Part shown: one piece after another, positions 9,492 through 61,598 of the stretch | Layout of the letters: the number at the start of each line of letters is the position of its first letter | Position numbering within the stretch: the first letter of the stretch is position 1 | Source of the DNA: a virus | Length of the DNA: 64,000 nucleotides | Direction: 5' to 3' (one strand) | IMG/VR virus record: IMGVR_UViG_3300027730_000009 | Coordinates: 27,974-91,973 of that record | Translations under genes and position numbers: made by a program | Notes under the pieces: generated by a model | Database searches by the model: none | The model's input: only the letters and a program-made list of their open reading frames with translations | What the model was told of the DNA's origin: nothing

Positions 9492-10487
9492 TTAATCAAC
9501 TCGGACAATATAATATGTTGTCCCCTCAACATTTTCTTCACCTATTTTACCATCATATGGAGAAATTGCCGTGTATCCATCATTTCGAATAATTTTACCA
9601 ATTACATCACCTTGGTCAATAAAGTCAGATATGGCCAAATCATAATCTTCTATAAAGTCCAAAGGCGCTTCACGAACTTCTTCAACTTTTTTTTCAATTT
9701 CCTCCTCAATTTTTTCTTCGAGATAATCTCCCTGTGGGTCTGATTCAATTTCCTCTATTAATTCCAACATTTTTTCCATCTCAGATTCTAAAGTCTCAAT
9801 CAAATCTTGAAATTCTTCTTTCCTTTTTCCAGTTTCTTTTTCCGCAATTTTTTTGAAAGTTTCAAGTCTCTCAGCCAAAATTTTAGATTTTTTCTGATAA
9901 ACTTGATATTCTTTTTTTTGTTCATTGGACAAATCCTTAGCGTCATCATCCAAATAATTCTCAGGGGCCGAAGTAATCCAATCATTATAAAGGTCATATG
10001 CATAATCAACAACATCTCTCTCTGAAATACTACTCTCCAAAATCCAATCGGGTAATGAGTCGTAACCCTCTGAATCAAGAAAGTTCTCTAAGTTTTTTTT
10101 GGTAGCCTCATCGATATCATAATCATCACCCACAGCATAGGTCTGACCTAACTTTTCAATCAGATAAGATTTCATATAATATTCATAATCACCCTCAGGT
10201 TGTATATCATAAACATCAATATACTCATCATACTGAGACAACTCTTCATCAATCTGCTCAATTTGGGCAATGAGTTCAGGTGACGAAGTCTCTTCATATT
10301 GATTTTCCAACTCATCTTTACGATTCCTTAGTCTGTTCAAATTCTCTTGGATATCATCATCAATTTCATTTATCTCTCCCTCACTTACCAAATACTGATA
10401 AAGAGCATTGACCTGTCTTCCCTCTTCATCCAAACCAGGACCCAATTCCCATTTACCTGTTTTTCTTCTTTCCTCGGCTGCTGACAT
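9492..10487 (-). CDS. Highly acidic coiled-coil hypothetical protein
   Basis: 331 aa, D/E rich; TATTTAT upstream. Confidence 0.7.
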   Translation of the reverse strand: MSAAEERRKTGKWELGPGLDEEGRQVNALYQYLVSEGEINEIDDDIQENLNRLRNRKDELENQYEETSSPELIAQIEQIDEELSQYDEYIDVYDIQPEGDYEYYMKSYLIEKLGQTYAVGDDYDIDEATKKNLENFLDSEGYDSLPDWILESSISERDVVDYAYDLYNDWITSAPENYLDDDAKDLSNEQKKEYQVYQKKSKILAERLETFKKIAEKETGKRKEEFQDLIETLESEMEKMLELIEEIESDPQGDYLEEKIEEEIEKKVEEVREAPLDFIEDYDLAISDFIDQGDVIGKIIRNDGYTAISPYDGKIGEENVEGTTYYIVRVD

Positions 10488-10507
10488 AATTTTAATCTTT
10501 ATATTTG

Positions 10508-10535
10508 ATAAATACTATAATAAAACCATATTTAT
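10508..10535. promoter_or_regulatory. Back-to-back TATTTAT putative late promoters
   Basis: ATAAATA at 10508-10514 (minus) and TATTTAT at 10529-10535 (plus) between divergent genes. Confidence 0.55.
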
Positions 10536-10554
10536 AATATGTAGATGTTTGAAA

Positions 10555-11145
10555 ATGACCACCGGAATTTATAAAATAACTAATATCACAAATAATAAAG
10601 TCTACATAGGAAGTAGCATTAATATTTCCAGTAGGGAATATAAACATTTTTGGATGTTAGATAGAGGGATACACGACAATCCTCACTTACAAAATTCTTT
10701 CAACAAATATGGTTTAAATAGTTTTATTTTCGAGATTTTGGAAATTTGTGAGGAATCATCACTAATTGAAAAAGAAAATTATTATATTTCAACCCATCGT
10801 TCTAATATTTTTGAATCAGGGTACAATTTAGCAACCGTAAATGAATCAAGAAGAAATAACTCCAACACTGAAGTAAAAATAAAATTATCTAAATATAACT
10901 TGATAAAAAATGGAAATTTTACTATGTTTTCTTTAAGAAATATTATAACAGATAAAGAACACATATTCGAAAGTTTAGTTGATGCCGCAAATTATTTGAT
11001 TGAGAATGGTTTTTCGAAAGGGAAACCAACAAATGTAAGAATAAAAATTTCACAATGTTTACGAGGTTTAAAAGTTAATAATGGTCACAAAAATCACTCA
11101 ATCAGAAAAACTTGTTATAAACACAATTTCAGAATAATAAAATAA
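10555..11145 (+). mobile_element. GIY-YIG homing endonuclease
   Basis: MTTGIYKITN..VYIGSS..R..H..E..GYN; NUMOD1-like FESLVDAA; start moved to ATG 10555. Confidence 0.85.
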
Positions 11146-11369: not shown

Positions 11370-12392
11370 ATGAGTAAGTATGATTTTTTACTTAGAAAAT
11401 TCAACAATGGTCAATTGGGAAATATTTTAGGCGCCTTGGATGGTAAGATAGAACCTATTATTGGATTATTAGATAAAAAAGGATTACTTGACCAAATAAA
11501 TTTGACTTCTAATGATAACGAAGAATATCATAACCATGGCTATTATTATATCGCCAAAAACCATCCAGAAAAGTTTTTATCGATGATGGTAGAATTCTTC
11601 GATGAAATTTCTGTTGAGGGCGATGGTAGAACATTTTTAACTATTGCTGACCGAAGTGACCTATCCGAGTTATTTTGTGATAGTATTAGAAATGGTTTGA
11701 GTCAAAGCACCGTTGCAAACATTTTGGATGGTGAAAATGATTGGAGAAGTTTTGATGTATCATCTGAAAACCTTTATCGGGATGTTATCGAAGATTTAAC
11801 TCCCAAAAATGAAACTATTTTATATCAAAGAGTGTTAAAAGATTTTCTGAATGAAAGTGAGAAGATTTATCCTGAAACAGAGCTACTTCAATCAATTGCC
11901 GAAGAACAAGGTCATAATGATTTCGTTGAACTAACCCAAGAGAATATCCCTAAGATTTTCTCAGATGAAGATAGTGCTCTCTCAGTATTGGGTATTTTGG
12001 AAGATTTGAGGTCAGATTTACATTCTTTATACGACAGCGCATACAACGACGCGTATGAACCTGAACTATATGAAAACATTTTCAATTCATTAAGTGATTT
12101 TTTTGTTGGCAGAGGTGATTGGGTTTCAAAACAATCCCCTAAAGACCCAACCAAAACTCAATATGATTTTAGAATTGAAGTCAATGACTTTGTTGGTTTA
12201 ATGAAAAGGTATTTCGATGAACTCAGAGGTGAAGGTACCCATACTATTGAAAATTATGGTTATTTTATGAGTGTTCTACAAAATGGTATTGATATGGGTG
12301 TATTTGAATGCGTTAGGGTATTCGCACCTGACTATGCCGACTGGACCAAAATGAAAGAAAGTTTTAACGAGTTATTTTCAGACTATATCTAA
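11370..12392 (+). CDS. Acidic hypothetical protein
   Basis: 340 aa ORF; TATTTAT 6 nt upstream. Confidence 0.7.
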
Positions 12393-15300
12393 ATCAGCAA
12401 ACCTTTTTCTTTCGCCCTATTAAATAATTTTTCAGCTCTTTCTTCGAGTTGATTGATTATAGTATCCTGTTCTTTAAGAGCCTCAACACAAATAGCAATT
12501 ACTTCACGATATCTTACCATGTAAGTATTTTGCTCAGAACCAACTACTAATTCAGGGTAAAACTGAAGTATTTCTTGTGCAATGAATCCTATTTCTGGCT
12601 CTTCTTTCTTTCCCCAAGCATAATCTTCTAACCAATTGAATTCAACACCTCTAATTTTCTGTATTGTCTCCAATGCGGATTCAATTTGATGAATGTTTGT
12701 CTTTAATCTAAAATCTGAAGGTCCAGTAGGACCGGGAGCTCCTTGAGCACCCTGTGGTCCAGTTGGACCTTGAGCACCTGTACCAACTTTTTGTCCCTGA
12801 GCACCTTGAGGACCTGCAAGAGCTCCACCTATGTCACCTTGTGCTCCTTGAGGACCTCCACCTCCTTGAGCACCTTGAGCACCTTGTGGTCCTATTGCCC
12901 CTTGTGAACCTTGGGAACCTTGGGGACCAACACCTCCTTGAACACCTTGTCCACCGGCAGCACCTTGGAATCCTTGAGCTCCAGCCGCTCCTTGGAAACC
13001 TTGACCTCCTTGGGCTCCTTGAGCTCCTTGAGCTCCAGTCGCTCCTTGGGAACCTTGAAAACCTACAGGTCCTTGAGCTCCTTGAGGTCCTTTAGAACCT
13101 TGTGCTCCTTGAGGCCCTTGTGCCCCTTGTCCTCCTTGAGCTCCTTGAGGTCCTACAGCTCCTTGAGCACCTTGACTTCCTTGAAATCCTTGTCCTCCAG
13201 TTGCTCCTTGGAAACCTTGAGCACCTTGACCTCCTGTCGCCCCTTGGAAACCTTGTCCGCCTTGAGCTCCTTGAGGTCCTACAGCCCCTTGAGCACCTTG
13301 AGCACCTTGAAATCCTTGACCTCCTTGAGCTCCTTGAGGTCCTTTCGCACCTTGAGCACCTTGAGCTCCTTGGAAACCAGTAGTTCCTTGGGCACCTTGT
13401 GGGCCAACAGCACCTATATGTCCCGTAGCTCCCTGAAAACCTTGTCCTCCTTGAGCTCCTTGAGCACCTTCAGGACCGGTTGCTCCTGTAGCTCCTTGGA
13501 ACCCTTGAGCTCCGACGGCACCTTGTGAACCCTGTGGCCCTATATGACCTTGAGCACCTTGGAATCCTTGACCTCCTACCGCTCCCTGAGAACCTTGTGG
13601 TCCTTGAGCTCCTTGAGCACCTTGGAATCCCTGACCCCCTTGAGCACCCTGAGACCCTTGAGCACCTATGGCTCCTTGAGCTCCTTGGAATCCTGTTCCA
13701 CCTTGAGCCCCTTGCGGACCTAAGGCCCCTTGAGCACCTACCGCTCCTTGATTCCCTTGTCCTCCTTGTGCACCTTGGGACCCTACTGGACCTTGAGCAC
13801 CTTGAGCTCCTTGAAATCCTTGACCTCCCTGCGCTCCTTGGGGACCTTGAGCACCTTGACCTCCTGTCGCCCCTTGAAATCCTTGTCCTCCTTGAGACCC
13901 TTGTGGACCTTTTGGTCCTTGGGCACCTTGAGCTCCTTGAAATCCTTGTATCCCTTGAGCTCCTTGTGAACCAATAGCACCTTGAGCTCCTTGTGCTCCT
14001 TGAAATCCTTGACCTCCTTGAGCTCCTTGTGGTCCAGTTCCACCCTGAGCTCCGACAGCACCTTGAAACCCCTGTCCTCCTTGTGCCCCTTGAGCTCCCT
14101 GAGGTCCTTGCGCCCCTTGAGCTCCTTGGAACCCTTGAGCTCCGACGGCACCTTGTGAACCCTGTGGCCCTATATGACCTTGAGCACCTTGGAATCCTTG
14201 ACCTCCTACCGCTCCCTGAGAACCTTGTGGTCCTTGAGCTCCTTGAGCACCTTGGAATCCCTGACCCCCTTGAGCACCCTGAGACCCTTGAGCACCTATG
14301 GCTCCTTGAGCTCCTTGGAATCCTGTTCCACCTTGAGCCCCTTGCGGACCTAAGGCCCCTTGAGCACCTACCGCTCCTTGATTCCCTTGTCCTCCTTGTG
14401 CACCTTGGGACCCTACTGGACCTTGAGCACCTTGAGCTCCTTGAAATCCTTGACCTCCCTGCGCTCCTTGGGGACCTTGAGCACCTTGACCTCCTGTCGC
14501 CCCTTGAAATCCTTGTCCTCCTTGAGACCCTTGTGGACCTTTTGGTCCTTGGGCACCTTGAGCTCCTTGAAATCCTTGTATCCCTTGAGCTCCTTGTGAA
14601 CCAATAGCACCTTGAGCTCCTTGTGCTCCTTGAAATCCTTGACCTCCTTGAGCTCCTTGAGAACCTATTGCACCCTGAGCTCCGATAGCTCCTTGAAGAC
14701 CGATACCTCCTTGAGCTCCTTGTGCGCCTATTGCACCTTGTGCTCCTTGAGCCCCTTGAAATCCTTGCCCTCCTTGAGCTCCTTGAGCACCTATCGCTCC
14801 TTGTGCACCGATTGCTCCTTGTACTCCCTGAGGTCCAATTGCTCCTTGTACTCCTTGAGCACCTTGACCACCTACATGACCTTGAACACCCTGACCCCCT
14901 TGAGCTCCTTGTGAACCTATTGGGCCTATCGCTCCTTGAGCTCCTTGGAACCCTTGTCCACCTTGAGAACCTTGAGAACCTCGGGGACCTTGAGAACCTT
15001 CTAATCCCTGAGCTCCTTGTCCTCCTTGAGCCCCTTGAGCACCTTGAGAACCTATAGCACCTTGAGAACCTTGAGCACCTTGAGCCCCTATCAAACCCTG
15101 TGGACCTGGAACTCCTTGGGAACCAGTTGCACCTTGTGACCCTTGAGCTCCTTGAGGTCCTGTATTTTTATTACCTAACCAACCCTGAGGACCTATAATG
15201 TTACCAAAATTATTTTGGATAATATTGGTTCGAGTGTTACCTGAAATTCTTAATGTAGGTGCCGCGTCTATTATTTTAACAATAGAACCTGAATTAGGTG

Positions 15301-15412
15301 TCGAATATACTAACCCTGAACTATTGGATAGATAAACCCAATTGGTAACAGTAGACGCGGAATCAAGGAACTCAAATTTTCCATCCAAAGGATAAATTAC
15401 TATGTCAGCCAC
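12389..15412 (-). CDS. Collagen-like fibre chain A with C-terminal peptidase S74 chaperone
   Basis: 271 Gly-X-Y units; [15 protein letters not shown]. Confidence 0.9.
13491..14659. repeat. About 540-bp exact direct repeat, 630-bp period
   Basis: 13491-14029 matches 14121-14659. Confidence 0.85.
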
Positions 15413-18400
15413 CGATTAATGATTTGAGTTGATTAAGTTTAGTTTGTATTGATTTCACTCTTGTATTATTTTCTTTTAAAGTTGCAATACCTACGGAAAC
15501 AAGTAAATCGTATTGTAGATTTTTAAAACCATAAATATCAGTGCTCACGACTTCAGGAAAAAGTTTTTCTATTTCTTGAGCAATAAATCCTATACTTTTT
15601 CCTTTTAATAGATATTTCTGGTTTGGTTTATACCCCTCCAATTGAGGAATATTGTCTCTCCATTCGAATCTGACACCCTTCATACCAATTACACGACTTT
15701 TTATATTTTCTAATGATTTTACATTAGTTTTTAGTCGTTTATCTGATGGGGGACCTTGCGCTCCTTGGGCCCCTTGTGGTCCTTTTGGCCCTTGAGCACC
15801 TGTACCCCCTCCTATCCCTTGTGCACCTTGAGGTCCATCTGGTGGTTCCCCACCACCACCAGCTATTCCTTGAGCCCCTTGAGAACCTTGAAAGAATCCA
15901 TTTGCACCTGTGGCTCCTTGAAAACCTTGGACATTGCCAGCCCCTTGAGCTCCTTGAGGTCCAGTTGGCCCTGTTGCACCGGGGGTGATATTGGGTTGAC
16001 CGGGATGTCCAGTCACCCCAAATGAACCTTGGGCACCCTGAGGACCACCCTGAGCTCCTACAGCAGATATGGCACCCTGAGCACCAGTAGCCCCTTTAGC
16101 ACCAATAGCTTCAATTGGGTCAGCTGCAGCCCCGGGATTACCAGTATCACCAACAGCTCCACCAAATCCCGGAGCACCTGTAGTTACACTTGCAGCCCCA
16201 TTATTACCTGTCGTTCCTTGAGCACCAGTAAATCCCGGTGCACCCTGTGTCACCCCTGCAGCTCCGTTGTGACCTGTTGCACCTCCATTACCATTAGCTC
16301 CGGTATGTCCTTGGACGGCACCTTGAGCACCTTGAAATCCTGTGGCACCCTGAGCACCTCCAAATCCCGGTGCACCTTGGGTGGCACCTTGAGCTCCTTG
16401 AAACCCTGTAGCTCCTTGTGCACCAGTAAATCCTAAATCACCCGTCACAGAACTTTGAGCTCCTTGGGCTCCTTGACTTCCTTGACTTCCTTGGGCTCCT
16501 ACATGCCCTGTTGGTCCTCCTTGAGCCCCTATTTGTCCTTGGGCTCCTTGTGGACCTGTTGCGCCAGTGTGTCCTTGAACTATCGATGCTGGTCCTTGAG
16601 CTCCTTGAGGACCTTTAGTACCTTGAGCTCCGACGGCTCCTGATACTTCACTTGCGGTCCCACCGTGTCCTGTAGGTCCTTGTGCACCTATACCTCCTGT
16701 ATGTCCTTGAACAGCTCCTTGGGCACCTATATGTCCTTGGTCACCTTGAGCACCTTGTGCTCCTTTGGCACCCACAGCTGAAATCGCGTCACCGGCAGCT
16801 CCAGTGTGACCTGTAGCCCCTTGGGAACCTTGTGCTCCGGTAGCCCCTTGAACCGCATTTTGTGCACCTTGAGCTCCTTGAGAGCCTTGTGAGCCAGTAA
16901 ATCCCGGCGCTCCTTGTGTTGCCCCTGCAGCACCGATGTTACCTGTGGCTCCTTGGGAACCTGCAGCTCCCGTATGTCCCTGAACCGCACCTTGTGCTCC
17001 CTGAAACCCTTGTGCTCCTTGTGCACCAAAAATACCATCATGACCAGGGTTGACCCCTTGAGCGCCTTGTTGACCCACGGCACCTTGTGCCCCTATAATA
17101 CCTCCATGTCCTGTCACTGCACTTTGAGCTCCTGTTGCACCTTGAGCTCCCTGAGCTCCTTGACCACCGACAGCACCTTGGACAGCTCCTTGAGCTCCAA
17201 TGTGTCCCTGAGCTCCTTGAGCTCCAATAACACCAACATGTCCCTGAACCGCCGATTGAGGTCCTTGAGCTCCTTGAGGACCTTTGGTACCTTGAGCACC
17301 CTGAGCACCTGAGACTTCACTTGCGGTCCCACCGTGTCCTGTAGGTCCTTGTGCACCTATACCACCTGTATGTCCTTGAACAGCTCCTTGAGCACCTATA
17401 TGGCCTTGGTTACCTTGAGCACCTTGAGCTCCTTTCGCCCCATCAGTACCTAATCCTGCAGCAGCTCCTGTATTTCCCGTTCCTCCTTGAGCACCTTGTG
17501 CTCCGATGTTACCGGTTGGTAATCCTTGTGCTCCCACGGCTCCTTGAGCACCTTGAAAACCCATTACTCCAGAAGCACCTTGAGTACCACCATCAGCACC
17601 GATATTACCTGTAGCTCCTTGGGAACCTGCAGCTCCCGTATGTCCCTGAACCGCACCTTGTGCTCCCTGAAACCCTTGTGCTCCTTGTGCACCAAAAATA
17701 CCATCATGACCAGGGTTGACCCCTTGAGCGCCTTGTTGACCCACGGCACCTTGTGCCCCTATAATACCTCCATGTCCTGTCACTGCACTTTGAGCTCCTG
17801 TTGCACCTTGAGCTCCCTGAGCTCCTTGACCACCGACAGCACCTTGGACAGCTCCTTGAGCTCCAATGTGTCCCTGAGCTCCTTGAGCTCCAATAACACC
17901 AACATGTCCCTGAACCGCCGATTGAGGTCCTTGAGCTCCTTGAGGACCTTTGGTACCTTGAGCACCCTGAGCACCTGAGACTTCACTTGCGGTCCCACCG
18001 TGTCCTGTAGGTCCTTGTGCACCGATACCACCTGTATGTCCTTGAACAGCTCCTTGAGCACCTATATGGCCTTGGTCACCTTGAGCACCTTGTGCTCCCT
18101 TAGCTCCAATATCTAAAAATTCCGATGCCGCAGCTCCTGTATTTCCAGTTCCTCCTTGAGCACCTTGTGCTCCGATGTTACCGGTTGGTAATCCTTGGGC
18201 TCCCACGGCTCCTTGAGCCCCTTGAAAACCCATTACCCCAGACGCACCTTGAGTGCCACCATCAGCACCGATGTTACCTGTGGCTCCTTGGGAACCTTCA
18301 GCTCCCGTATGTCCCTGAACCGCACCTTGTGCTCCCTGAAACCCTTGCGCTCCTTGAGCACCAAAAATACCATCATGACCAGGGTTGACCCCTTGAGCGC

Positions 18401-19271
18401 CTTGTTGACCTACGGCACCTTGTGCACCTTCAAACCCTATATGTCCTTGTACAGCCCCTTGTGAACCGATAGCACCCTGTGCTCCTTGAGCACCGATTGC
18501 CCCTTGTGCTCCCTGAACAGCCCCTTGTGCTCCAACCTCACCTTGTGCCCCTTGGGCACCAATTGAACCTGTTTCACCTGCAACACCACCTTGGGCACCA
18601 ATACCACCTTGAGCTCCTTGAAAACCTTGAGCACCTTGTGCACCTATTGTTTCATTTGCCAATCCAACAACTCCCTCACCACCTTGAGCCCCTTGAGCTC
18701 CTTGAGCCCCTACGGTAGCCCCTTGAGCTCCTTGAGCACCTTGTGGTCCTTTAACACCTTGAGCACCTTGTGCTCCTTGTATACCTCCTTGGGCACCTTG
18801 AGCTCCGGCACCCCCTTGGGCACCTTGTGCTCCTTGTGCACCTGACACACCACCTTTAGCACCTTGAGCTCCTGTGTCCCCTTGAATCCCTTTAGCACCT
18901 TGAGCTCCTTGAGAACCTTGAGCACCCTGAGGACCTATAGGTCCAACTGCGCCCTGGGCTCCTTGGCCACCGATAGCACCTTGGAATCCTTGAATATTTA
19001 GTGGTGGTCCGACCCATTCACCGATGGTGTTTATCATCAGGGTTTCACCAGCCCAAACCCCTGATGTAGCATTGGTAATTGCAAGTCCTTTAGAGACTAA
19101 TCCTGTTGTCGAAATTTCAACAGTGTCAAATTGGGTTACCGAGGAGAAATTAATTCTGTCCGCCTCCAACATAACCACAACCATACCTGATGATACAGAA
19201 TCATCAAAAACAAAAAGTGGGTCAAGAGTTAAGGGAGAACCTTGAGGAAAAATAGTTACATTCAATGCCAT
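15405..19271 (-). CDS. Collagen-like fibre chain B with C-terminal peptidase S74 chaperone
   Basis: 341 units with periodic insertions; [15 protein letters not shown]. Confidence 0.9.
16630..18410. repeat. Tandem super-repeat, 666/669-bp period, nearly three copies
   Basis: 16948-17357 matches 17614-18023; GVNPGHD occurs three times. Confidence 0.85.
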
Positions 19272-19272
19272 A

Positions 19273-22200
19273 TCAATTTATTTCATTTTCAAGGTCTTCA
19301 ATTAATTTTTGTAGTTCTTCAATAAATACTTGTTGTTCTTTAATACCTTCAACAAGTAGGGCATTTAACTTCGGATAATCGATAGAATAATAACCGTTGT
19401 CTTTTAAGTCAACCACTTGTGGTATTACGGCTCTAACTTCTTGAGCAATAAATCCAATAGAGTGTATTTGTCCTAATTCTTTATAGGTATCATAATGTGG
19501 TGCCGATTCCAACCAATCAAATTCAACGGGATTCAATTTCAAAATTTTATCTAAAGCGTCTTCAATTGTAGTAACATTTGTTTTGAGTCTCGCGTCGGAC
19601 TTTTCACATGCTGTTTGGTTAGATAGTGCAGCGCCAGGCCCAGGGTCACATTCACCTATTGTCCAACAATTCACCCCATCACTAAAATTAGCGCCTCCAA
19701 AACAAGGAGGACAACTCGTACAGGCACTATCTGAGAAAATGTTACAACCGTTAGCCAGCGTCGCACAGTTGGAGTAGAAGGTAACATTTTCACCAGAACA
19801 TACTGCCTCACAGCTCTCTGGATTACAATTCGCATTGTGGGGATAACAAGCTACTCCAGTAGCTCCTTGTGCTCCTTGAAACCCGGTAGCACCTGGTGCA
19901 CCTGTATCACTAGCACCAGGAGCACCTTGGAATCCTATTATACCGACGTCCGGAATCCCTTGGGCTCCTTTTTGTCCTTGTGGTCCACCAGGGGTACCTT
20001 GAGCACCTGTTGCACCAGGGGTAGTGTTATTAGCACCTGGTGCGCCACCAGGTCCAGGTGGACCGCCCCCGCCAGGAGGTCCTGCAGCTCCTTGTGAACC
20101 TTGCGGACCCTTAGTACCTTGCGCGCCTGTTGGACCTGGATTACCTGGAGGTAAAGTTGAACCTGTAGCTCCTTGTGCTCCCTGTACCCCTTGAGGACCT
20201 CTCGCCCCTTGTGACCCTTGTGGCCCAACAGCACCCTGAGCACCTTGAGGACCTGTAGCTCCTATGGTACCTTGCGCCCCTTGTGGTCCAACAGCACCCT
20301 GTATCCCTTGTGCTCCTTGAGGTCCTCTACCTCCTTGAGCTCCTTGAGGTCCTACTCCTCCTTGACTTCCTTGAGAACCTTGAGGTCCTCGGGCACCGAC
20401 ATCACCAGTTCCTCCTCCAGCACCTTGTGAACCTTGAGAACCCTGTGGTCCTCTAGCACCGACATCACCAGTTCCTCCTCCAGCACCTTGTGAACCCTGA
20501 CCCCCTTGAGGTCCTCTATTACCTTGAGCTCCTGTACCTCCTGTTGCTCCTTGTGAACCTTGACCACCTTGAGGTCCACGAGCACCTTGCGAACCTTGAG
20601 CTCCCTTGGCTCCTTGTGCCCCTTGAGACCCTTGTGGTCCGATATTTCCTTGAGCGCCAGTTTCTCCTGTTGCCCCTTGTACCCCTTGTGCTCCTTGACC
20701 CCCTATCAGTCCTTGAGCTCCTTGGAATCCGACAGCACCTTGAGCTCCTTGAACTCCTTGTGGACCTCTAGCCCCTTGGACACCTATTGGACCTTGAGCA
20801 CCTTGTGCTCCTTGTACTCCTTGTGGACCTCTTGGTCCTTGGACTCCCTGAGGACCTATGGCACCTTGAACACCTTGGGAACCTTGTGGTCCTCTATTAC
20901 CTTGAGCACCTGTTCCTCCTTGCGCACCTTGCGACCCTTGGGCTCCTTGAGGTCCTCTATCTCCTTGAGCTCCTTGGCCTCCTTGAGCCCCTTGAGCACC
21001 TTGAGCACCCTGAGGTCCTAAGGCTCCGGTGTGTCCAGTGGCTCCAGCAGCACTCTGTGAACCTTGAGACCCTTGTGGTCCTCTTGCCCCGATTTCTCCA
21101 GTAGCTCCTTGAGCTCCTTGGGACCCTTGAGCACCTTGTGGTCCTACGCTACCCTGAGCTCCAGTTCCTCCAGTTGCTCCTTGTACACCTTGTGCTCCTT
21201 GAGGTCCAACGGACCCTTGGGACCCTTGAGCTCCCTTAGCCCCTTGAGCTCCTTGAGACCCTTGTGGTCCGACATTTCCTTGAGCTCCAGTCTCTCCAGT
21301 TGCTCCTTGTGCCCCTTGTGCTCCTTGACCTCCTATCAGTCCTTGTGCTCCTTGGAATCCGACAGCACCTTGAGCCCCTTGGGCTCCTTGCGGACCTCTA
21401 GCTCCTTGAGACCCTATTGGACCTTGAGCCCCTTCCGCTCCTTGTACTCCTTGTGGACCTCTTGCCCCTTGTGAACCTTGTGGTCCGACAGCACCCTGAA
21501 GTCCTTGTGCCCCTTGAGGTCCTCTGGCACCTTGGGCTCCTTGAGCTCCTACGGCATCATTTTGTGCTCCTTGTGCCCCTTGAGGTCCTCTACCTCCTTG
21601 TGACCCTTGAGGTCCAACAGCACCTTGAACTCCTTGGGCACCCTGAGGTCCTAAAGCTCCGGTATCTCCTGTTGCTCCAGGAGCACTCTGAGAACCTTGA
21701 GACCCTTGTGGTCCTCTTGCCCCGATTTCTCCAGTAGCTCCTTGAGCTCCTTGGGACCCTTGAGCACCTTGAGGTCCTACGCTACCCTGAGCTCCAGTTC
21801 CTCCAGTTGCTCCTTGTACACCTTGTGCTCCTTGAGGTCCAACGGACCCTTGGGACCCTTGAGCTCCCTTAGCCCCTTGTGCCCCTTGAGACCCTTGTGG
21901 TCCGACATTTCCTTGAGCACCTGTTTCTCCAGTTGCTCCTTGTACCCCTTGTGCTCCTTGACCTCCTATCAGTCCTTGTGCTCCTTGGAATCCGACAGCA
22001 CCTTGAGCCCCTTGGGCTCCTTGCGGACCTCTAGCTCCTTGAGACCCTATTGGACCTTGAGCCCCTTCCGCTCCTTGTACTCCTTGTGGACCTCTTGCCC
22101 CTTGTGAACCTTGTGGTCCGACGGCACCCTGAACACCTTGTGCCCCTTGAGGTCCTCGGGCTCCTTGGGCACCTTGAGCACCTACGGCATCATTTTGTGC

Positions 22201-23778
22201 TCCTTGTGCCCCTTGAGGTCCTCTATTTCCTTGAGCTCCTTGGCCTCCTTGAGCCCCTTGAGCTCCTTGAGCGCCCTGAGGTCCTAAGGCTCCGGTGTGT
22301 CCAGTGGCTCCAGCAGCACTCTGAGAACCTTGAGACCCTTGTGGTCCTCTTGCCCCGATTTCTCCAGTAGCCCCTTGTGCTCCTTGGGACCCTTGAGCAC
22401 CTTGGGGTCCTATGTTTCCCTGAGCACCTTGGGCACCTTCACCACCTTGTGCTCCTTGAGCACCCTGTGGACCAACTAATCCTTGAGCCCCTTGAGCCCC
22501 TTTTGAGCCTTGTGACCCTTGTGGCCCGAAAGGTCCTACTAATCCTTGGGCACCTTGTCCTCCTTTTGCTCCTTGTACCCCTTGAGCTCCTTGGGGACCC
22601 GCAGCACCTTGAGCACCTTGAGAACCTATTCCTCCTTGAGCACCTTGTGCCCCTTGAGGCCCGATAGCACCTGTGGCTCCTTGGAAACCCTCGGCACCTT
22701 GTGCTCCGATGTTACCCGTGGAGCCGATTGCCCCCTCAGAACCTTGAGCACCAGTAGTTCCCTCAGCACCTTGAGCACCAGTAGGTCCTATTGCTCCTTG
22801 AACACCCTGAGGCCCTTTGGGACCTTGTGCACCTTGAGCACCAACAGCAGCATTTAGAGTATTGTTGTAATCCAAAAATTCGATACCAAAAAACATTTTG
22901 ATATCTTGATTCACATTAGTGCTTCCTGAAGTAAAAGATATCCCAAAATCCCAATAGTTACCAAACAAGGATGTACTAGTAACATTATAGAGATAATTAC
23001 CATCGAGAGGTCCATCAACATCGAGTAATTCAACTCTTAAATCCCAGTTATTATCAATTTGAGAAAATATACTACTTAAATCAACAAGTCCAGCTCCTTG
23101 AGGTGTAGTTCCTCCTGAAACTGAGACTGACATTGTGTTAACACCAGTCACTGTTGTGTCACTATTAGTCGCCGCAACCCTTAGAGCCCCATCAAAAGTC
23201 GAGTCAGCTACCCATGTCCACCAATATGGACCATAAATTGTTGGTTGACCACCACCTTGATTTCCTTGTGGTCCTTGAGCACCTTGCGCACCTTGGGCAC
23301 CAATGGCACCCTGAGCACCTGTAATATTGGTACCAGGTCCTGTCCAATTTCCTGTACCATCCAAGACTTGTGTACCTCCGACCGATAAAAAGTTAGTGAC
23401 CGTAAGGGTTGAAAACACATAAACCTCAGGAGAACATCCTCCCAAGTTTGATGAAAGAACATCACTAATATCTGTTACTGTACTTGGTCTTACACAACGA
23501 TAATAAGTTAGACCCGAAGGAACATTAATAGTTTCTAATACCCCTGTACTACAATTACGATATGTCGCAACCCCCGTTCCTCCACCAGTTGCCAAAAATG
23601 AAAAGTAATCACAATTTTCTTGGGGTGCAAATAAAACTTGGTTTTCAAATAACAAAGAGGCATCATATAACACCAAAATTTTGAACTTAAAACTTGGGTC
23701 AGTCTCAAATAATATTTCAGGAATGTTTCCAGGTCTTGAACGTATATTACTTGGAAATATTGTTAGATTCTTTGCCAT
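19273..23778 (-). CDS. Collagen-like fibre chain C with inserted domains and C-terminal peptidase S74 chaperone
   Basis: 8 + 330 units; Cys-rich domain; [15 protein letters not shown]. Confidence 0.9.
20590..22400. repeat. Tandem super-repeat, 633/630-bp period, nearly three copies
   Basis: About 21060-21500 matches 21693-22133; [17 protein letters not shown] occurs three times. Confidence 0.85.
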
Positions 23779-23802: not shown

Positions 23803-23869
23803 CATCTAAACAAAGTTTAGAGCACCAAAGTTTATTAGATATTATAATAAAATTATAATAAGGGTAAAC

Positions 23870-24157
23870 CTACTCCTTGAGATGTTTTTTGATTATGTCA
23901 ACCGCTTCGGTTAACTCTTGATAGTCCCTGTCGGGAGCATACAGAAATGACTTGTGTTTATCACCCCCCTTTTCTTGGATTATCAAAAGAGCAGGTACAT
24001 AGTCGTTTTCTGTTGCCTTAACAAAAATATCATATTCTTCTTTATTGTCATCGATATCCCTGTCAACAAAATCGATACCTTCACTTGTGAGCATATCTTT
24101 AAAGTCATAACAATGGGGACATCCTTTCATTGTATAGACAACTATATGTGTAGACAT
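23870..24157 (-). CDS. Glutaredoxin
   Basis: VYTMKGCPHC, VP cis-Pro motif. Confidence 0.85.
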   Translation of the reverse strand: MSTHIVVYTMKGCPHCYDFKDMLTSEGIDFVDRDIDDNKEEYDIFVKATENDYVPALLIIQEKGGDKHKSFLYAPDRDYQELTEAVDIIKKHLKE

Positions 24158-27587: not shown

Positions 27588-28895
27588 TTATTGTGCAACC
27601 TCCCAAAGTCCTGAGTCCCATTCGACACCTCTGTCGGCAATACCTTGAGGTATCTCCAAATTATCAGACTCCTTGACATTGATAAACAATAAATCAGGAA
27701 GGTCAGCAATACAGTCAGGGATGGTTCTCAGTTCAGGATTTTTCTGTAGGGTTAAAAACTTTAAATTTTTAAGTTCACAAACTTGTTCAGGAAGATAATC
27801 AATACAATTAATCAAAACCAAAGCCTCAAGGTTTTTAAACTTACCAATACTCGGTGGAATAACCAAAGTATGTTGTCCTCTCCCGTTGATGTTAATTTCA
27901 TTCAAATCATCAGGTAGAGCATCGAATAATTCGTCTAATCCATAAAGACCAATGAACTTACCAACAGACCCCGAATTAAAACCATCAATTTCAAGTTTTT
28001 CACCACCGACGGTAAGACCCTTAGCAAACTCAGGTTTAAAATATTGTTTTAATTCCTCCATTGGTCCGTTTAACAACTGAACCAAATCAACACTACGGTC
28101 ATCCTTGTCCATAAACTGATTGCTAGGGAAGTGGAACTGATATCTATCAACAGGAAGACCTGTAGAAGGTGCCACTCTAGTGTCATTGGGATTGTATACA
28201 ACATACAAAGGACCATCCTTAATATAACGGTCAAACCAGTTAAGACCAGGGGCTGATGTACACCAGCGAGTCTCTTGTTGGTTCCCACCATAGAAACATG
28301 CCGCCTCTCTACCCTTATCACCCTTATCTTCAATTTTTACGACCTTCCAAGTCTCACCCTCAAAACCACTTTCTGCACCAGGGTGAACCGCCAAATTCTT
28401 TCTCTCCGCCTTAGTGGTAGTTGCCATAGTTAAGTCAAAGTCCTTAACCGCGTCATACAAATCATCAACACTCAACTTATTGATGTCTCTTAACTCAACA
28501 GGAAGTCTATTTTTGAAACGATGAAACTTCTTCAAATCATCGGTCACCTTATAAAGGTCCTCCATGAAACGGTCCTTACTTTGGACAACCTCCCTATCGT
28601 AACCATACTCACCATACTGAAGTTCAGTCTTAGGACGAAGGTAGTTTTTAATAATCCATGGAGTGTATTCCCCCACCTTTACCTTAGACATATCTTCCTT
28701 ACTGATTCTATCATCACCCAAGTTTACATCGTTCAAACGAGTGGTCGGGTCCGCAGCAATTAACTGAAGTAATTCAGTTTTTTTCAAAAGGGGTTTTTTT
28801 TCCGAACCTTTCTTCGGATTTACAAACTTGTCCATCAACACCTCAAAACGAGAGGCTTCCTTAATAAGTGTACGCAGTAAAGAATTAAACTTCAT
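27588..28895 (-). CDS. YG..TRWCT domain protein with C-terminal leucine-rich repeats
   Basis: RDINK, ACFYG..TRWCTS; IPPSIGKFKNL, LPEQVCELKNL, IPDCIADLPDL LRRs. Confidence 0.7.
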   Translation of the reverse strand: MKFNSLLRTLIKEASRFEVLMDKFVNPKKGSEKKPLLKKTELLQLIAADPTTRLNDVNLGDDRISKEDMSKVKVGEYTPWIIKNYLRPKTELQYGEYGYDREVVQSKDRFMEDLYKVTDDLKKFHRFKNRLPVELRDINKLSVDDLYDAVKDFDLTMATTTKAERKNLAVHPGAESGFEGETWKVVKIEDKGDKGREAACFYGGNQQETRWCTSAPGLNWFDRYIKDGPLYVVYNPNDTRVAPSTGLPVDRYQFHFPSNQFMDKDDRSVDLVQLLNGPMEELKQYFKPEFAKGLTVGGEKLEIDGFNSGSVGKFIGLYGLDELFDALPDDLNEININGRGQHTLVIPPSIGKFKNLEALVLINCIDYLPEQVCELKNLKFLTLQKNPELRTIPDCIADLPDLLFINVKESDNLEIPQGIADRGVEWDSGLWEVAQ

Positions 28896-57803: not shown

Positions 57804-60800
57804 ATGTCTTTTTATTTTAAGGGTATTAAAATTGCCGATTGTTGTTATGTTCTCAATCTACCAACCAGGATAGATAGAAAAAAAGTTGTTGATGAACTTT
57901 TATCATCATTGTTTTTTTCTGGTTACACTTTTTTTGATGGTCAAGTAATTGAAAATCCAGAATTAAAAAAATTTGGATGCACCTTTTCTCATTTACAGAT
58001 TTTTCAAGAATTTTTAAAAACCGATAAACAAACTATTGTCATATTGGAGGACGACATAAAATTATTCAATGGGGTCAACAATTATCATTTGGATAATGTA
58101 TTCAATAATTGGGAAGAAACGATTTCTAATTATGATGTAATTGCTTTGGGGACAAAACTTTTACCAAGAAGTGTAATAGAACCTGAAGGTGAAACGCATG
58201 GAAATTTCAAAGAATTACTTTGCGCACATGGATTTTTTTACCACCGGACTGTTGTAGAACATATTGTTGATAAGTTATCAAATTTCGATAAACCTGGACA
58301 CCCTTTATACAAGTGTGCGATTGATATGTTTTTAAATGACATTTCAAATGTAAGATATCGGTTCAGACATTTTCATGAACTTAAAAGTTTTAAATTTGGA
58401 ATTACAATTCCAATGATTTTTAATCAATCAGCCGGCTATTCAGATAATGAAGAAACTAACGAAAATTACGAAAATTTAATTGAGCAAGCATATTGGAATG
58501 CTTTACCCATCCCAAAAAATGAAGTTATGAAAGACGAAAAAAAACCAAGAGGTTTTGTATATTATTGCAACGAAAAATACATTCCAATTGTTGAGCAATC
58601 TATACGATTAATGAGGAAATATACATCATTACCCATATACGTTTACCTTGTTGACTGCAGTTATGATTTCAAACTACCCAATGTAAACACCATAATATGG
58701 TCAGTCGAATTAGAAAATTTCGATGATGAGATGTATACCAAAGAGGATGAGAATTTTTACATTCGAAGAGAAGACAAAAGGTTCTACAAGCTTTTAATTC
58801 AACGACCATTAATTGTAAAACATTGTTTAGAAAATTTTTTAGAAACCGCAGCTTATGTTGACACCGATTCAGTCCCTATGCCTTGGGTTGAAAACTTTTT
58901 CAATCATTTTCATTATGATTCAGAAGTCCCTTATTTTACAGAATGTTTTTACAGTTATCTATCCCTCAATGGTAGAGGAAGTGGTCCTGATAATGACTTT
59001 ACAAACACGCTAGAACACGAAACTTGTGAGCTATTAGGTGTTGACCAAAGTGTGAGAAAATGGTATCGTCAAACTGGCTATTTTATCGCAGGACAAAACT
59101 GTTTGGATTTCTTAGACGAATGGCATTGGTTTTGCACCCACCCAAAAATTTTGGAAAATCCTGAGCTTTATGCTCCCTTCCATGAAGAAACCATTATGAA
59201 CGTAATGATGTGGAAAAAAAAGGTTTTCAAAGGGCTTCATTTGGTTTACGTAAACGCTACGTCTGAAACCGTTGATAAGCTCTTTAATGAAATTACTTTC
59301 AATGGTGAAAATCAAATTTTGGGTCCATGGTTTGGAGTTCCCGGTGAATTAGAACACATCTACTTTTTACATGGTGAAAAAAGATTGGAAGTAATGAGTG
59401 AAATGTCAAAAAAAATAGACAACTACACAACCAAAACTAAACCAAGAATTCTTTTTCTAGCCCCCCATTTATCAACTGGAGGAATGCCAGGATTTTTACT
59501 TAAAAGGATTTTGACCCTTCAAGAATATAGAAACGAGTTTGATTTATATGTTGTTGAATACTCCAATTACAGTGATGAATATGTTGTTCAAAAAACTAGC
59601 ATAAAACACATCATTCCAAAATCCAATTATTTCACTTTGGGTTCAGACAAAATGGAGTTAATTGACATTATTAAGAGGAATAAAATTGATGTAGTTCACA
59701 TTGACGACAATATTGAATCTTTAGAAACTTTCAATCGGACCCCAACAGCATTGATGAATGCGTTGTATGCAAACGACAGGTCTTGGTTTATTGTAGAGAC
59801 TTGTCACAACGTTTCTTTCAAACCTGAATTATCTAAAACTTTTCATCCGGATGCTTATGCTTTTTGTAGCCCATGGCACAAAGCAGTTAGTTTTTCTACA
59901 ATGCCTTCATATTCCGAGGTTATCGAATTTCCCATCGATACTTTGTCAACACCAGATGAAATTAAAGAGGGGATTCAAACTGCACTTGGTTTAAATCCAG
60001 AAAAAATTCATATTGTAAATGTAGGTCTTTGGACACCAGGAAAGAATCAAAAAGAGGGTATTGAACTTGCAAGATTATTTGAATTTAGTAATCCCGAATA
60101 TGAGTTTCACTTTATTGGCAATCAGGCACCTAATTTCAAGGACTACTGGGAACCATTGATGATGAATTTACCAAGTAATGTTAAAGTTTGGGGTGAACGT
60201 AAAGACGCATCACTTTTTATTCAAGCTTCTGATGCATTCCTCTTTAATTCTACTTGGGAATGTAATCCTTTAGTTTTGCGTGAAGCCATATCTTTTGGTA
60301 AAAAAATTCTAGCAAGAAACCTTCCGGAATATATGGGAATGTTTGACGAGTATATCGTACCAATTAACAGCAACTTAGAGGAGCTTAAAACTAAGCTCGT
60401 TGACTTGGTAAAATCAGACATTTGTTATTTGGTTCCCGAGGGACAATCCAAGGATTTTGCAAATAAAAATGCTGATTTATATCATAAGGTAATTAATTCT
60501 CCAAAAATGGAGAATGAAAGAATGGTTACGGATGTAAAAATTATTCAACATTTTGTAAATCAACCATTCCTAGAAATCGTTGGTAACTCGGATTCGGATT
60601 TTAGAGTTGAATTTTATGATGAACAGGGTGTTTGCCATTATAACAACACGATTAAATCAAATCATTGGATACGACTTAATCGACAATACTACACCAAATG
60701 GACAACTAAAGTTTATAAAGACGACAAATTGATTCACAACAAAACTTTGGATTTAAAAAATAAGAGAGTCTTCATTTCTTTTGATAGCAAATCTTTAGGA

Positions 60801-61598
60801 GATAGCGTTGCTTGGATACCTTATGTTCTAGAGTTTCAAACTAAACATGACTGCAAAGTTATTGTATCCACATTTTGGAATAAGCTTTTCAAAAACACAT
60901 ATCCCGAACTTGAATTTGTTGAGCCAGGAGCTGTTGTCCACAACTTAATGGCTATGTACAAGTTAGGTTGGTTTTACAATATGGATATGGAACCAGTTGC
61001 ACCAAATCTTATTCCACTGCAAAAAGCAGCATCGAACATTTTAGGTTTAGATTTCGAAGAAATTCAACCGAGAATAGATGTCCATATTAAAGAAAGACCC
61101 TACAAGGAAAAGTATGTGGCTATTGCAACCAATTCAACTGCAGGTTTGAAATTTTGGACAAGAGATGGTTGGCAACAACTTGTTGATTACTTAATATCAA
61201 AAGGGTATAAGGTGATTAACGTTTCAAAAGAAAAAAATCCTTTCAGGGGAGTGAACGAATTAAAAGATACTTCTATTGAAAATACAATGAACGTGATACA
61301 CCACAGTGAATTTCTAATAGGACTTTCCAGTGGATTGTCTTGGCTTAGTTGGGGTATGGGAAAACACGTTGTAATGATTTCGAACTTTACAAAAGATGAC
61401 CACGAATTTACTTCAAATTGTACTAGAATCACGAATCCTGAAGTATGTAATGGTTGTTGGAATAATCCAAAATTTGTATTCGACAAAGGAGATTGGGATT
61501 GGTGTCCAGAACACAAAGGAACCCCAAGACAATTTGAATGTCACACTTCTATCACCCCAAAAATGGTGATAAATAAAATTGAAAAACTAGTTAGTTGA
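57804..61598 (+). CDS. Four-domain glycosyltransferase: GT25 + GT-A (DxD) + GT4 + Aah/TibC-like GT9
   Basis: NL..R.DR, GC..SH, LEDD; YVDTD; HLSTGG, KNQ, ECNPLVLRE; SLGDSVAW, GLSSGLSWL, CNGCW..WCP.HKGT.RQFEC. Confidence 0.8.
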   Translation: MSFYFKGIKIADCCYVLNLPTRIDRKKVVDELLSSLFFSGYTFFDGQVIENPELKKFGCTFSHLQIFQEFLKTDKQTIVILEDDIKLFNGVNNYHLDNVFNNWEETISNYDVIALGTKLLPRSVIEPEGETHGNFKELLCAHGFFYHRTVVEHIVDKLSNFDKPGHPLYKCAIDMFLNDISNVRYRFRHFHELKSFKFGITIPMIFNQSAGYSDNEETNENYENLIEQAYWNALPIPKNEVMKDEKKPRGFVYYCNEKYIPIVEQSIRLMRKYTSLPIYVYLVDCSYDFKLPNVNTIIWSVELENFDDEMYTKEDENFYIRREDKRFYKLLIQRPLIVKHCLENFLETAAYVDTDSVPMPWVENFFNHFHYDSEVPYFTECFYSYLSLNGRGSGPDNDFTNTLEHETCELLGVDQSVRKWYRQTGYFIAGQNCLDFLDEWHWFCTHPKILENPELYAPFHEETIMNVMMWKKKVFKGLHLVYVNATSETVDKLFNEITFNGENQILGPWFGVPGELEHIYFLHGEKRLEVMSEMSKKIDNYTTKTKPRILFLAPHLSTGGMPGFLLKRILTLQEYRNEFDLYVVEYSNYSDEYVVQKTSIKHIIPKSNYFTLGSDKMELIDIIKRNKIDVVHIDDNIESLETFNRTPTALMNALYANDRSWFIVETCHNVSFKPELSKTFHPDAYAFCSPWHKAVSFSTMPSYSEVIEFPIDTLSTPDEIKEGIQTALGLNPEKIHIVNVGLWTPGKNQKEGIELARLFEFSNPEYEFHFIGNQAPNFKDYWEPLMMNLPSNVKVWGERKDASLFIQASDAFLFNSTWECNPLVLREAISFGKKILARNLPEYMGMFDEYIVPINSNLEELKTKLVDLVKSDICYLVPEGQSKDFANKNADLYHKVINSPKMENERMVTDVKIIQHFVNQPFLEIVGNSDSDFRVEFYDEQGVCHYNNTIKSNHWIRLNRQYYTKWTTKVYKDDKLIHNKTLDLKNKRVFISFDSKSLGDSVAWIPYVLEFQTKHDCKVIVSTFWNKLFKNTYPELEFVEPGAVVHNLMAMYKLGWFYNMDMEPVAPNLIPLQKAASNILGLDFEEIQPRIDVHIKERPYKEKYVAIATNSTAGLKFWTRDGWQQLVDYLISKGYKVINVSKEKNPFRGVNELKDTSIENTMNVIHHSEFLIGLSSGLSWLSWGMGKHVVMISNFTKDDHEFTSNCTRITNPEVCNGCWNNPKFVFDKGDWDWCPEHKGTPRQFECHTSITPKMVINKIEKLVS

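Follow-up and report, generated by a model that had tools for sequence, protein, structure and literature searches.

The window analysed here is the final 64 kilobases (kb) of a 91,973-base-pair (bp) viral contig (IMG/VR record IMGVR_UViG_3300027730_000009, from position 27,974 of that record). Positions 12389-23778 of the window are filled by three open reading frames (ORFs) on the minus strand, in the order C, B, A. Each encodes an N-terminal head, a rod of collagen-like Gly-X-Y triplets and a C-terminal Peptidase_S74 domain, and the three genes are called a triad below.

19273..23778, minus strand: gene C, 1501 amino acids (aa); head type C, 8 triplets, a globular insert, the rod, a Cys-rich tip and S74 type C
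15405..19271, minus strand: gene B, 1288 aa; head type B (residues 1-94), rod (95-1175) and S74 type B (1176-1288)
12389..15412, minus strand: gene A, 1007 aa, with a GTG start; head type A (residues 1-84), rod (85-898) and S74 type A (899-1007)

All three chains match Pfam Collagen (PF01391, E 1e-64 to 1e-113), and their C-termini match Peptidase_S74 (PF13884) with scores of 54 bits in A, 43.9 in B and 60.5 in C, above the cut-off of 22. An earlier description of this DNA, made from the letters alone and called here the sequence-only reading, had noticed the S74 domains, a W-x-G motif before the helix and a shared N-terminal motif. All of these were found again in the three chains; the N-terminal motif reads MADIVIYP in A (with the GTG read as M), MALNVTIFP in B and MAKNLTIFP in C, the first nine residues being common to the three. 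The catalytic Ser motifs are SDFRLK in A, SDKRLK in B and SDARLK in C. The self-cleavage site had been placed at Ser-Asp and has to be moved to the N-terminal side of the Ser: S74 domains cut N-terminal to the Ser of S-D-x-R-L-K by means of a Ser-Lys dyad, as described for the endosialidase CIMCD. The S74 domains of B and C in the window are 33-42% identical to that of A. In a profile search, the C-type tails matched the phage tail-fibre proteins 6F45 (E 1e-9) and 8JOV.

In the rods of all three chains X is mostly Ala, Y is Gln in about 60-75% of triplets, Pro makes up 5-18% of X, and charged residues are few. The rod of chain A is nearly unbroken, with one run of 260 triplets and a 21-residue period marked by Phe. 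The rod of chain B (15747-18989, minus strand) is not a continuous helix. It has an extra residue about every 7 triplets, typically as G-A-V-Q-G-H, which gives a 22-residue period and 47 breaks; we know of no described collagen with so regular a 22-residue period. Chain C is built as follows.

23320..23778, minus strand: residues 1-153, head type C, from MAKNLTIFP to NWTGPG
23248..23319, minus strand: residues 154-177, 8-triplet helix before the inserted module
22843..23247, minus strand: residues 178-312, inserted globular module of 135 aa
19849..22842, minus strand: residues 313-1310, main rod, 323 strict triplets with 10 short breaks
19600..19848, minus strand: residues 1311-1393, Cys-rich tip of 83 aa, after the helix and before the cleavage Ser of S74
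19276..19599, minus strand: residues 1394-1501, Peptidase_S74 type C with SDARLK and an acidic C-terminal helix

The inserted module of chain C is rare, with 3 matches among 1.84 billion representatives. It recurs at 79% identity in an unrelated 1878-aa protein (L010, 2728-3129) that consists of Cys-rich modules joined by Pro/Thr linkers. An AlphaFold2 (AF2) model of the module reached a predicted local distance difference test (pLDDT) score of 43.6, too poor to judge whether its termini are adjacent (loop-out) or opposite (in-line); a model of the tip with its S74 domain reached 54.9, likewise too poor to judge the placement of the domain termini.

Triplets were counted strictly and as triplet-equivalents, in which a short break counts as floor(length/3). 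The strict counts are 273 in A, 323 in B (in 48 runs) and 8 + 323 in C, and the triplet-equivalents are 274, 345 and 8 + 330. The hand counts of the sequence-only reading (271, 341 and 8 + 330) correspond to triplet-equivalents and were essentially right. The agreement of C with B requires that the 8-triplet helix of C be counted. Chain A had been described as differing by exactly 70 units; B exceeds A by 71 triplets, equal to one 70-triplet (630-nucleotide (nt)) super-repeat. A break reported close to the helix end of each chain is indeed present in the window (LA in A, 11 triplets from the end; PD in B and DV in C, both 10 triplets from it), and in the relatives it is no general register mark.

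We compared the window with 14 further syntenic triads on viral and metagenome contigs, to which searches with the B head had led. No matches came from word-based homologue searches, whether the query was the B head or the head of C together with its insert. The motif S-D-x-R-[LFMY]-K, with its Lys five residues past the Ser, is present in 45 of the 45 chains of these 15 triads. Rod lengths in triplet-equivalents are given here, with L numbers for the further loci.

L033: C 98, B 98, A 98
L041: C 131, B 160, A 145
L027: C 142, B 140, A 137
L036: C 142, B 141, A 134
L037: C 144, B 143, A 141
L034: C 153, B 154, A 151
L039: C 153, B 154, A 148
L032: C 157, B 157, A 156
L029: C 167, B 167, A 166
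L035: C 222, B 221, A 219
L026: C 269, B 269, A 270
L028: C 304, B 302, A 304
L014: C 314, B 314, A 320
Window: C 338, B 345, A 274
L020: C 356, B 356, A 365

Between phages the rod varies 3.7-fold, from 98 to 365 triplets, and the three lengths change together; within a triad the median range is 3 triplets, and 8 of the 15 triads match to within 0-3 triplets. The Pearson correlations of the lengths are 0.996 for C and B, 0.979 for C and A, and 0.976 for B and A. The mean within-triad range is 9.9 triplets, versus 133.9 when lengths are permuted, and none of 100,000 permutations reached the observed match. In L026 and L028 the longest unbroken run is equal in A and C (234 and 279 triplets, respectively), and from L014 to L020 the rods of C, B and A grow by 42, 42 and 45 triplets. 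Different chains of a triad have collagenous domains of equal length, the exceptions being chain A of the window and L041. The lengths are genuinely locked, and this holds throughout the clade. The sequence-only reading had proposed that the chains are constrained to assemble in register, either as an ABC heterotrimer or as three bundled homotrimers. Since lengths do not vary independently in the 14 further triads, the chain-length constraint is strongly supported; the breaks in the helices of different chains are unaligned and so give no sign of a register of the classical kind.

The arrangement of the genes is consistent with synthesis of the three chains in equal amounts. The start codon of B lies 1 nt past the stop of C, and gene A, which begins with GTG, overlaps the end of gene B, stop codon included, by 8 nt. 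In the A-type orthologues the start (15410-15412 in the window) is always GTG or TTG, with an overlap of about 8 nt with the upstream stop. This proximity of stops and starts, together with the conserved non-ATG start of A-type genes, would fit equimolar synthesis, and the three genes probably form a translationally coupled operon. A consensus scan found no convincing terminator between the three collagen genes.

We lean slightly towards one A·B·C heterotrimer, rather than three homotrimers of equal length, as the product of these genes, because it is the triplet count that is locked, because one head and one S74 domain of each type are kept, and because a Cys-rich tip sits on exactly one chain in 14 of the 15 triads (L029, 7870-14252, has no tip on any chain). 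The locked quantity was compared in 13 triads, excluding the window and L041. The within-triad range is 3.7 when measured by triplet-equivalents, 7.9 by residues divided by three and 8.4 by the longest contiguous segment. The chain with periodic breaks differs from the others by a mean of -0.6 triplets in triplet-equivalents and by +5.9 triplets when length is taken from residues, and C matches only when helix pieces split by inserts of 16-221 aa are added together. Since the triplet count is the locked quantity, separate homotrimers would differ in physical length.

Clustering placed exactly one chain of each of the three head types, and one of each of the three S74 types, in every one of the 15 triads. 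The periodic one-residue insertion is likewise found on exactly one chain per triad, and in all B-type orthologues. A comparison of the 7-triplet signatures across chains gave no clear sign of a conserved relation between their phases. In L035 (3774-12586) the linkage of heads and S74 domains is cyclically permuted (N_C-S_B, N_A-S_C, N_B-S_A), with the full set of types and the length match (222/221/219) kept; its periodic-break chain carries two inserts, of 165 and 67 aa. This locus amounts to a natural module-swap experiment. In the other chains of a triad, the two without a tip, the helix ends at the cleavage Ser, and as homotrimers these would be bare rods.

Several observations weigh against a mixed helix. 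Helix interruptions do not fall at matching positions in the different chains; breaks are chain-specific, and in L020 there are none in the 349 triplets of C, 49 in B and 6 in A. Measured from the nearest break in B, the breaks of A and C lie at widely scattered offsets, and a search for coincidence of breaks gave no clear signal. In a mixed helix each of the 10-50 extra residues of B would have to bulge against two unbroken strands. The last 30 residues of the S74 domains carry a mean net charge of -4.3 in type C (acidic) and +2.3 in type B (basic, as is the C-terminal helix of B in the window), and type A is consistently neutral. This pattern would fit selection of one chain of each type by the S74 domains; the charges fall within the spread of a general sample, and the pattern is therefore only suggestive. 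The closest solved relatives, 6F45 and 8JOV, are phage tail-fibre proteins, and characterised S74 domains are homotrimeric. Characterised prokaryotic collagens are homotrimeric as well (PMC8968730). Among the relatives, only L041 (7929-13982) is clearly mismatched, at 131/160/145. The B gene of L041 contains a 115-nt exact repeat spaced 66 nt. Finally, chain A of the window, at 274 triplets against 338-345 in C and B, is about 70 triplets short.

This shortfall in the window probably arose when the assembly collapsed one exact unit of 630 nt. Each gene contains a super-repeat of about 70 triplets (A, 630 nt; B, 666/669 nt; C, 633/630 nt) whose copies are nearly or fully identical, at 97-100% in gene C. 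Without a mismatch, the repeats extend for at most 540 nt in gene A, 410 nt in gene B and 178 nt in gene C. Collapse is the likely cause because the missing 630-nt unit exists as a 540-nt exact repeat:

13490..14659, minus strand: two copies of the 540-nt exact repeat of gene A, at 14120-14659 and 13490-14029, 630 nt apart

All related contigs that were found via the downstream gene break inside the A orthologue, so the region is hard to assemble.

The strongest competitor, to which we give appreciably less than an even chance, is that the triad encodes three separate homotrimeric fibres (A3, B3 and C3), each with its own S74 domain and head, which selection keeps equally long since they work next to one another, either packed laterally into a bundle or jointly having to span one distance. 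The homotrimeric state of all characterised S74 fibres and prokaryotic collagens agrees with this, as do the chain-specific, unaligned breaks. Under this explanation the 7-triplet periodic signature that each chain has of its own could serve lateral packing, and the divergence of the S74 domains, the three types being only about 32% identical to one another, would prevent mixed trimers. The moderate mismatches in A of the window, in L041 and in A of L036 (-7) also sit well with it. However, flexible rods of 84-305 nm would not need a match nearly as tight as the 0-3 triplets seen in 8 of the 15 triads. Measured in residues, B3 would exceed the mean of its partners by 1.4-4.5% in 12 of the 13 triads compared, and the inserted domains of C3 would make it even longer. 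A3 and B3 would lack any distal domain. Independent fibres should also be individually dispensable, yet gene loss was seen in 0 of the 15 triads.

Two further explanations dispense with a lock between collagen strands. Equal lengths might stem from ancestral triplication, or from assembly artefacts in repetitive genes, and reflect no structural constraint; we regard this as extremely unlikely. The paralogs share a 7-triplet unit and higher-order repeats of 42 or 70 triplets, so that indels come in similar quanta, and in the window genes there are exact repeats, 178-540 nt long, whose copy number is beyond the reach of short reads. Against this stand the 3.7-fold spread between phages, with all three genes changed together in each lineage, and the parallel difference between L014 and L020 in genes that have no near-identical repeats. 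A chance match, which large repeats make conceivable by rendering length labile, had also been considered and was dropped once the orthologous triads were compared. Gene conversion between paralogs was not seen: the paralog rods reach at best 0.50-0.76 identity over 300 nt, which is the Gly-X-Y background, and conversion therefore does not explain the match. Assembly collapse was rejected as the source of the parallel changes in the relatives, in whose genes no exact repeat is longer than 115 nt; their rod lengths can therefore be trusted. It is, in turn, very improbable, if a shade less so, that the Gly-X-Y regions form not a triple helix but another repetitive fold, the lock reflecting a different kind of assembly. 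Their composition is unusual (Ala-rich X, Gln-rich Y, little Pro, few charges), and the Pfam Collagen match mostly mirrors the Gly period. Gly-Ala-Gln-type triplets are, nevertheless, among the better imino-free triplets for a triple helix in host-guest data, and the three-residue Gly period persists through as many as 349 triplets in a row. The rod is, moreover, fused directly to a trimerising S74 domain, a widespread architecture (PMC12220804).

Under the heterotrimer that we favour, each gene of the operon would contribute one strand to the same virion fibre, a collagen-like structure of great length on an aquatic phage that is large and probably jumbo; the rod would measure about 290 nm if it has about 340 triplets. 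The three different S74 domains would associate 1:1:1 at the C-terminus, set the register and nucleate the C-to-N zippering of one A·B·C triple helix, after which each would cleave itself off before its Ser. In the mature fibre, three distinct but related N-terminal heads are predicted to attach it to the virion. Chain C would contribute the only Cys-rich tip and a globular module looped out of the helix, and chain B would bulge by one residue roughly once in 7 triplets. The triplet number would be locked among the genes because the triplets of each strand must pair with those of the other two, and any change of length would have to be copied into all three genes. In short, this would be a natural A·B·C collagen outside animals, registered by S74 domains, with tip and loops on the C strand, periodic single-residue bulges from another strand, and coordinated gain and loss of repeats in three genes; judging from the sequences, we put such a molecule at a little better than even.

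The surroundings of the triad are conserved among the related loci, where the gene order is a thioredoxin-like gene, C, B, A and a convergent 340-aa gene. Other features in the window are as follows.

23870..24157, minus strand: thioredoxin-fold gene, 95 aa, adjoining the operon on its upstream side
23841..23868, minus strand: promoter-like site TTTACC-16-TATAAT just upstream of gene C, from a consensus scan only
11370..12392, plus strand: convergent 340-aa gene of unassigned family, abutting gene A
10408-11145, plus strand: GIY-YIG homing-endonuclease gene, between the conserved 340-aa gene and a conserved 331-aa gene
57804-61598, plus strand: 1264-aa fusion protein with matches to the glycosyltransferase families GT25, GT1/GT4 and GT9

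The thioredoxin-fold gene lies upstream of the triad in 13 of the 14 related loci, at 55-74% identity, and may serve the Cys-rich tip and the head of chain C. It is retained even in the tipless L029. The convergent 340-aa gene holds the same position in 14 of the 14 loci. The GIY-YIG gene is found in just 2 of the 14 and is therefore a mobile insertion. In one relative (L012, L013) the DNA that encodes the rod of A is about 95% identical and the adjacent 340-aa protein only 77%, a contrast that hints at a recent exchange of fibre genes between phages. GT25 is the family that includes the collagen galactosyltransferases, and the 1264-aa fusion could decorate the collagen fibres.

The window has a G+C content of about 33%, and the collagen region reaches 46-57% because of its Gly, Ala and Gln codons. 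A 94%-related contig, 117 kb long, is estimated to be 49% complete, and a further relative sits on a 317-kb contig; the source phage is therefore probably a jumbo phage. Freshwater Bacteroidota are its suspected hosts. The genes around the operon have replication, methylase, sigma-factor and unassigned functions, and PHROG and Pfam scans of these neighbouring genes detected no recognisable tail or head module around it. Megablast comparison of a 24-kb part of the window with GenBank phages gave no match, and a pattern scan with a 548-aa upstream ORF gave no relatives.

The literature searched yielded no account of a triad that is obligatory and locked in length, nor of any viral collagen that is heterotrimeric, and to our knowledge a mixed three-strand design has so far come only from animals. 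Under either model, it is rare in nature for the lengths of three separate genes to be held equal across a 3.7-fold range, as they are here, and the triad offers a clean system for the co-evolution of repeat arrays in different genes. The L033 triad, at 98 triplets, is small enough for expression. Control of chain composition and register is a central unsolved problem for recombinant heterotrimeric collagen, and three small self-removing S74 domains would, if the heterotrimer is true, be a practical tool. Prokaryotic and viral collagens are regarded as homotrimers (PMC8968730), so that three S74 domains picking one chain each would, on the same proviso, be a new principle.

Among known systems, the S74 phage fibres (the K1F/NF endosialidases, the T5 L-shaped fibre, the S16-type 6F45, and 8JOV) have the same C-terminal S74 domain with SDxRLK, and trimerisation, folding of the upstream rod and self-release are predicted for the triad by this likeness. 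These fibres are single-gene homotrimers, whereas the triad has three diverged S74 types that always occur together, on length-locked rods. The combination of collagen and S74 is itself common: the C-terminus of A alone retrieved more than 130 such proteins, of 554-1729 aa, with a best identity to it of 39-48%. Phage collagen-like tail fibres have long been known (PMC4621102), and the collagen and S74 architecture has been described for fibres of polinton-like viruses (PMC12220804). The proteins of phages, prophages and polinton-like viruses that have these two domains in common with the triad are described as single homotrimeric fibres.

The bacterial collagens Scl1/Scl2 of Streptococcus and BclA of Bacillus likewise combine a globular domain for trimerisation with Gly-X-Y rods that lack hydroxyproline. 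They are homotrimers of tens to about 80 triplets whose domains stay attached, and the nucleating domain is the N-terminal V domain in Scl and a C-terminal C1q-like domain in BclA (PMC8968730). The triad differs in its 98-365 triplets, its three chain types and its chaperone, which is predicted to be released.

The animal heterotrimeric collagens (procollagen I, collagen IV with its NC1 domain, and C1q with its A, B and C chains) resemble the triad in having distinct chains with equal numbers of triplets, and have no sequence relationship to it. Type I collagen has 338 triplets. In procollagen a C-terminal non-collagenous domain selects and registers the chains and is then removed; that domain is the C-propeptide, whereas the triad has S74 domains that are predicted to cleave themselves. 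Some interruptions in C1q and type IV collagen occur in one chain only. The triad is set apart from the animal heterotrimers by breaks that are mostly unaligned, by the periodic one-residue insertion and by its imino-poor, Gln-rich rods.

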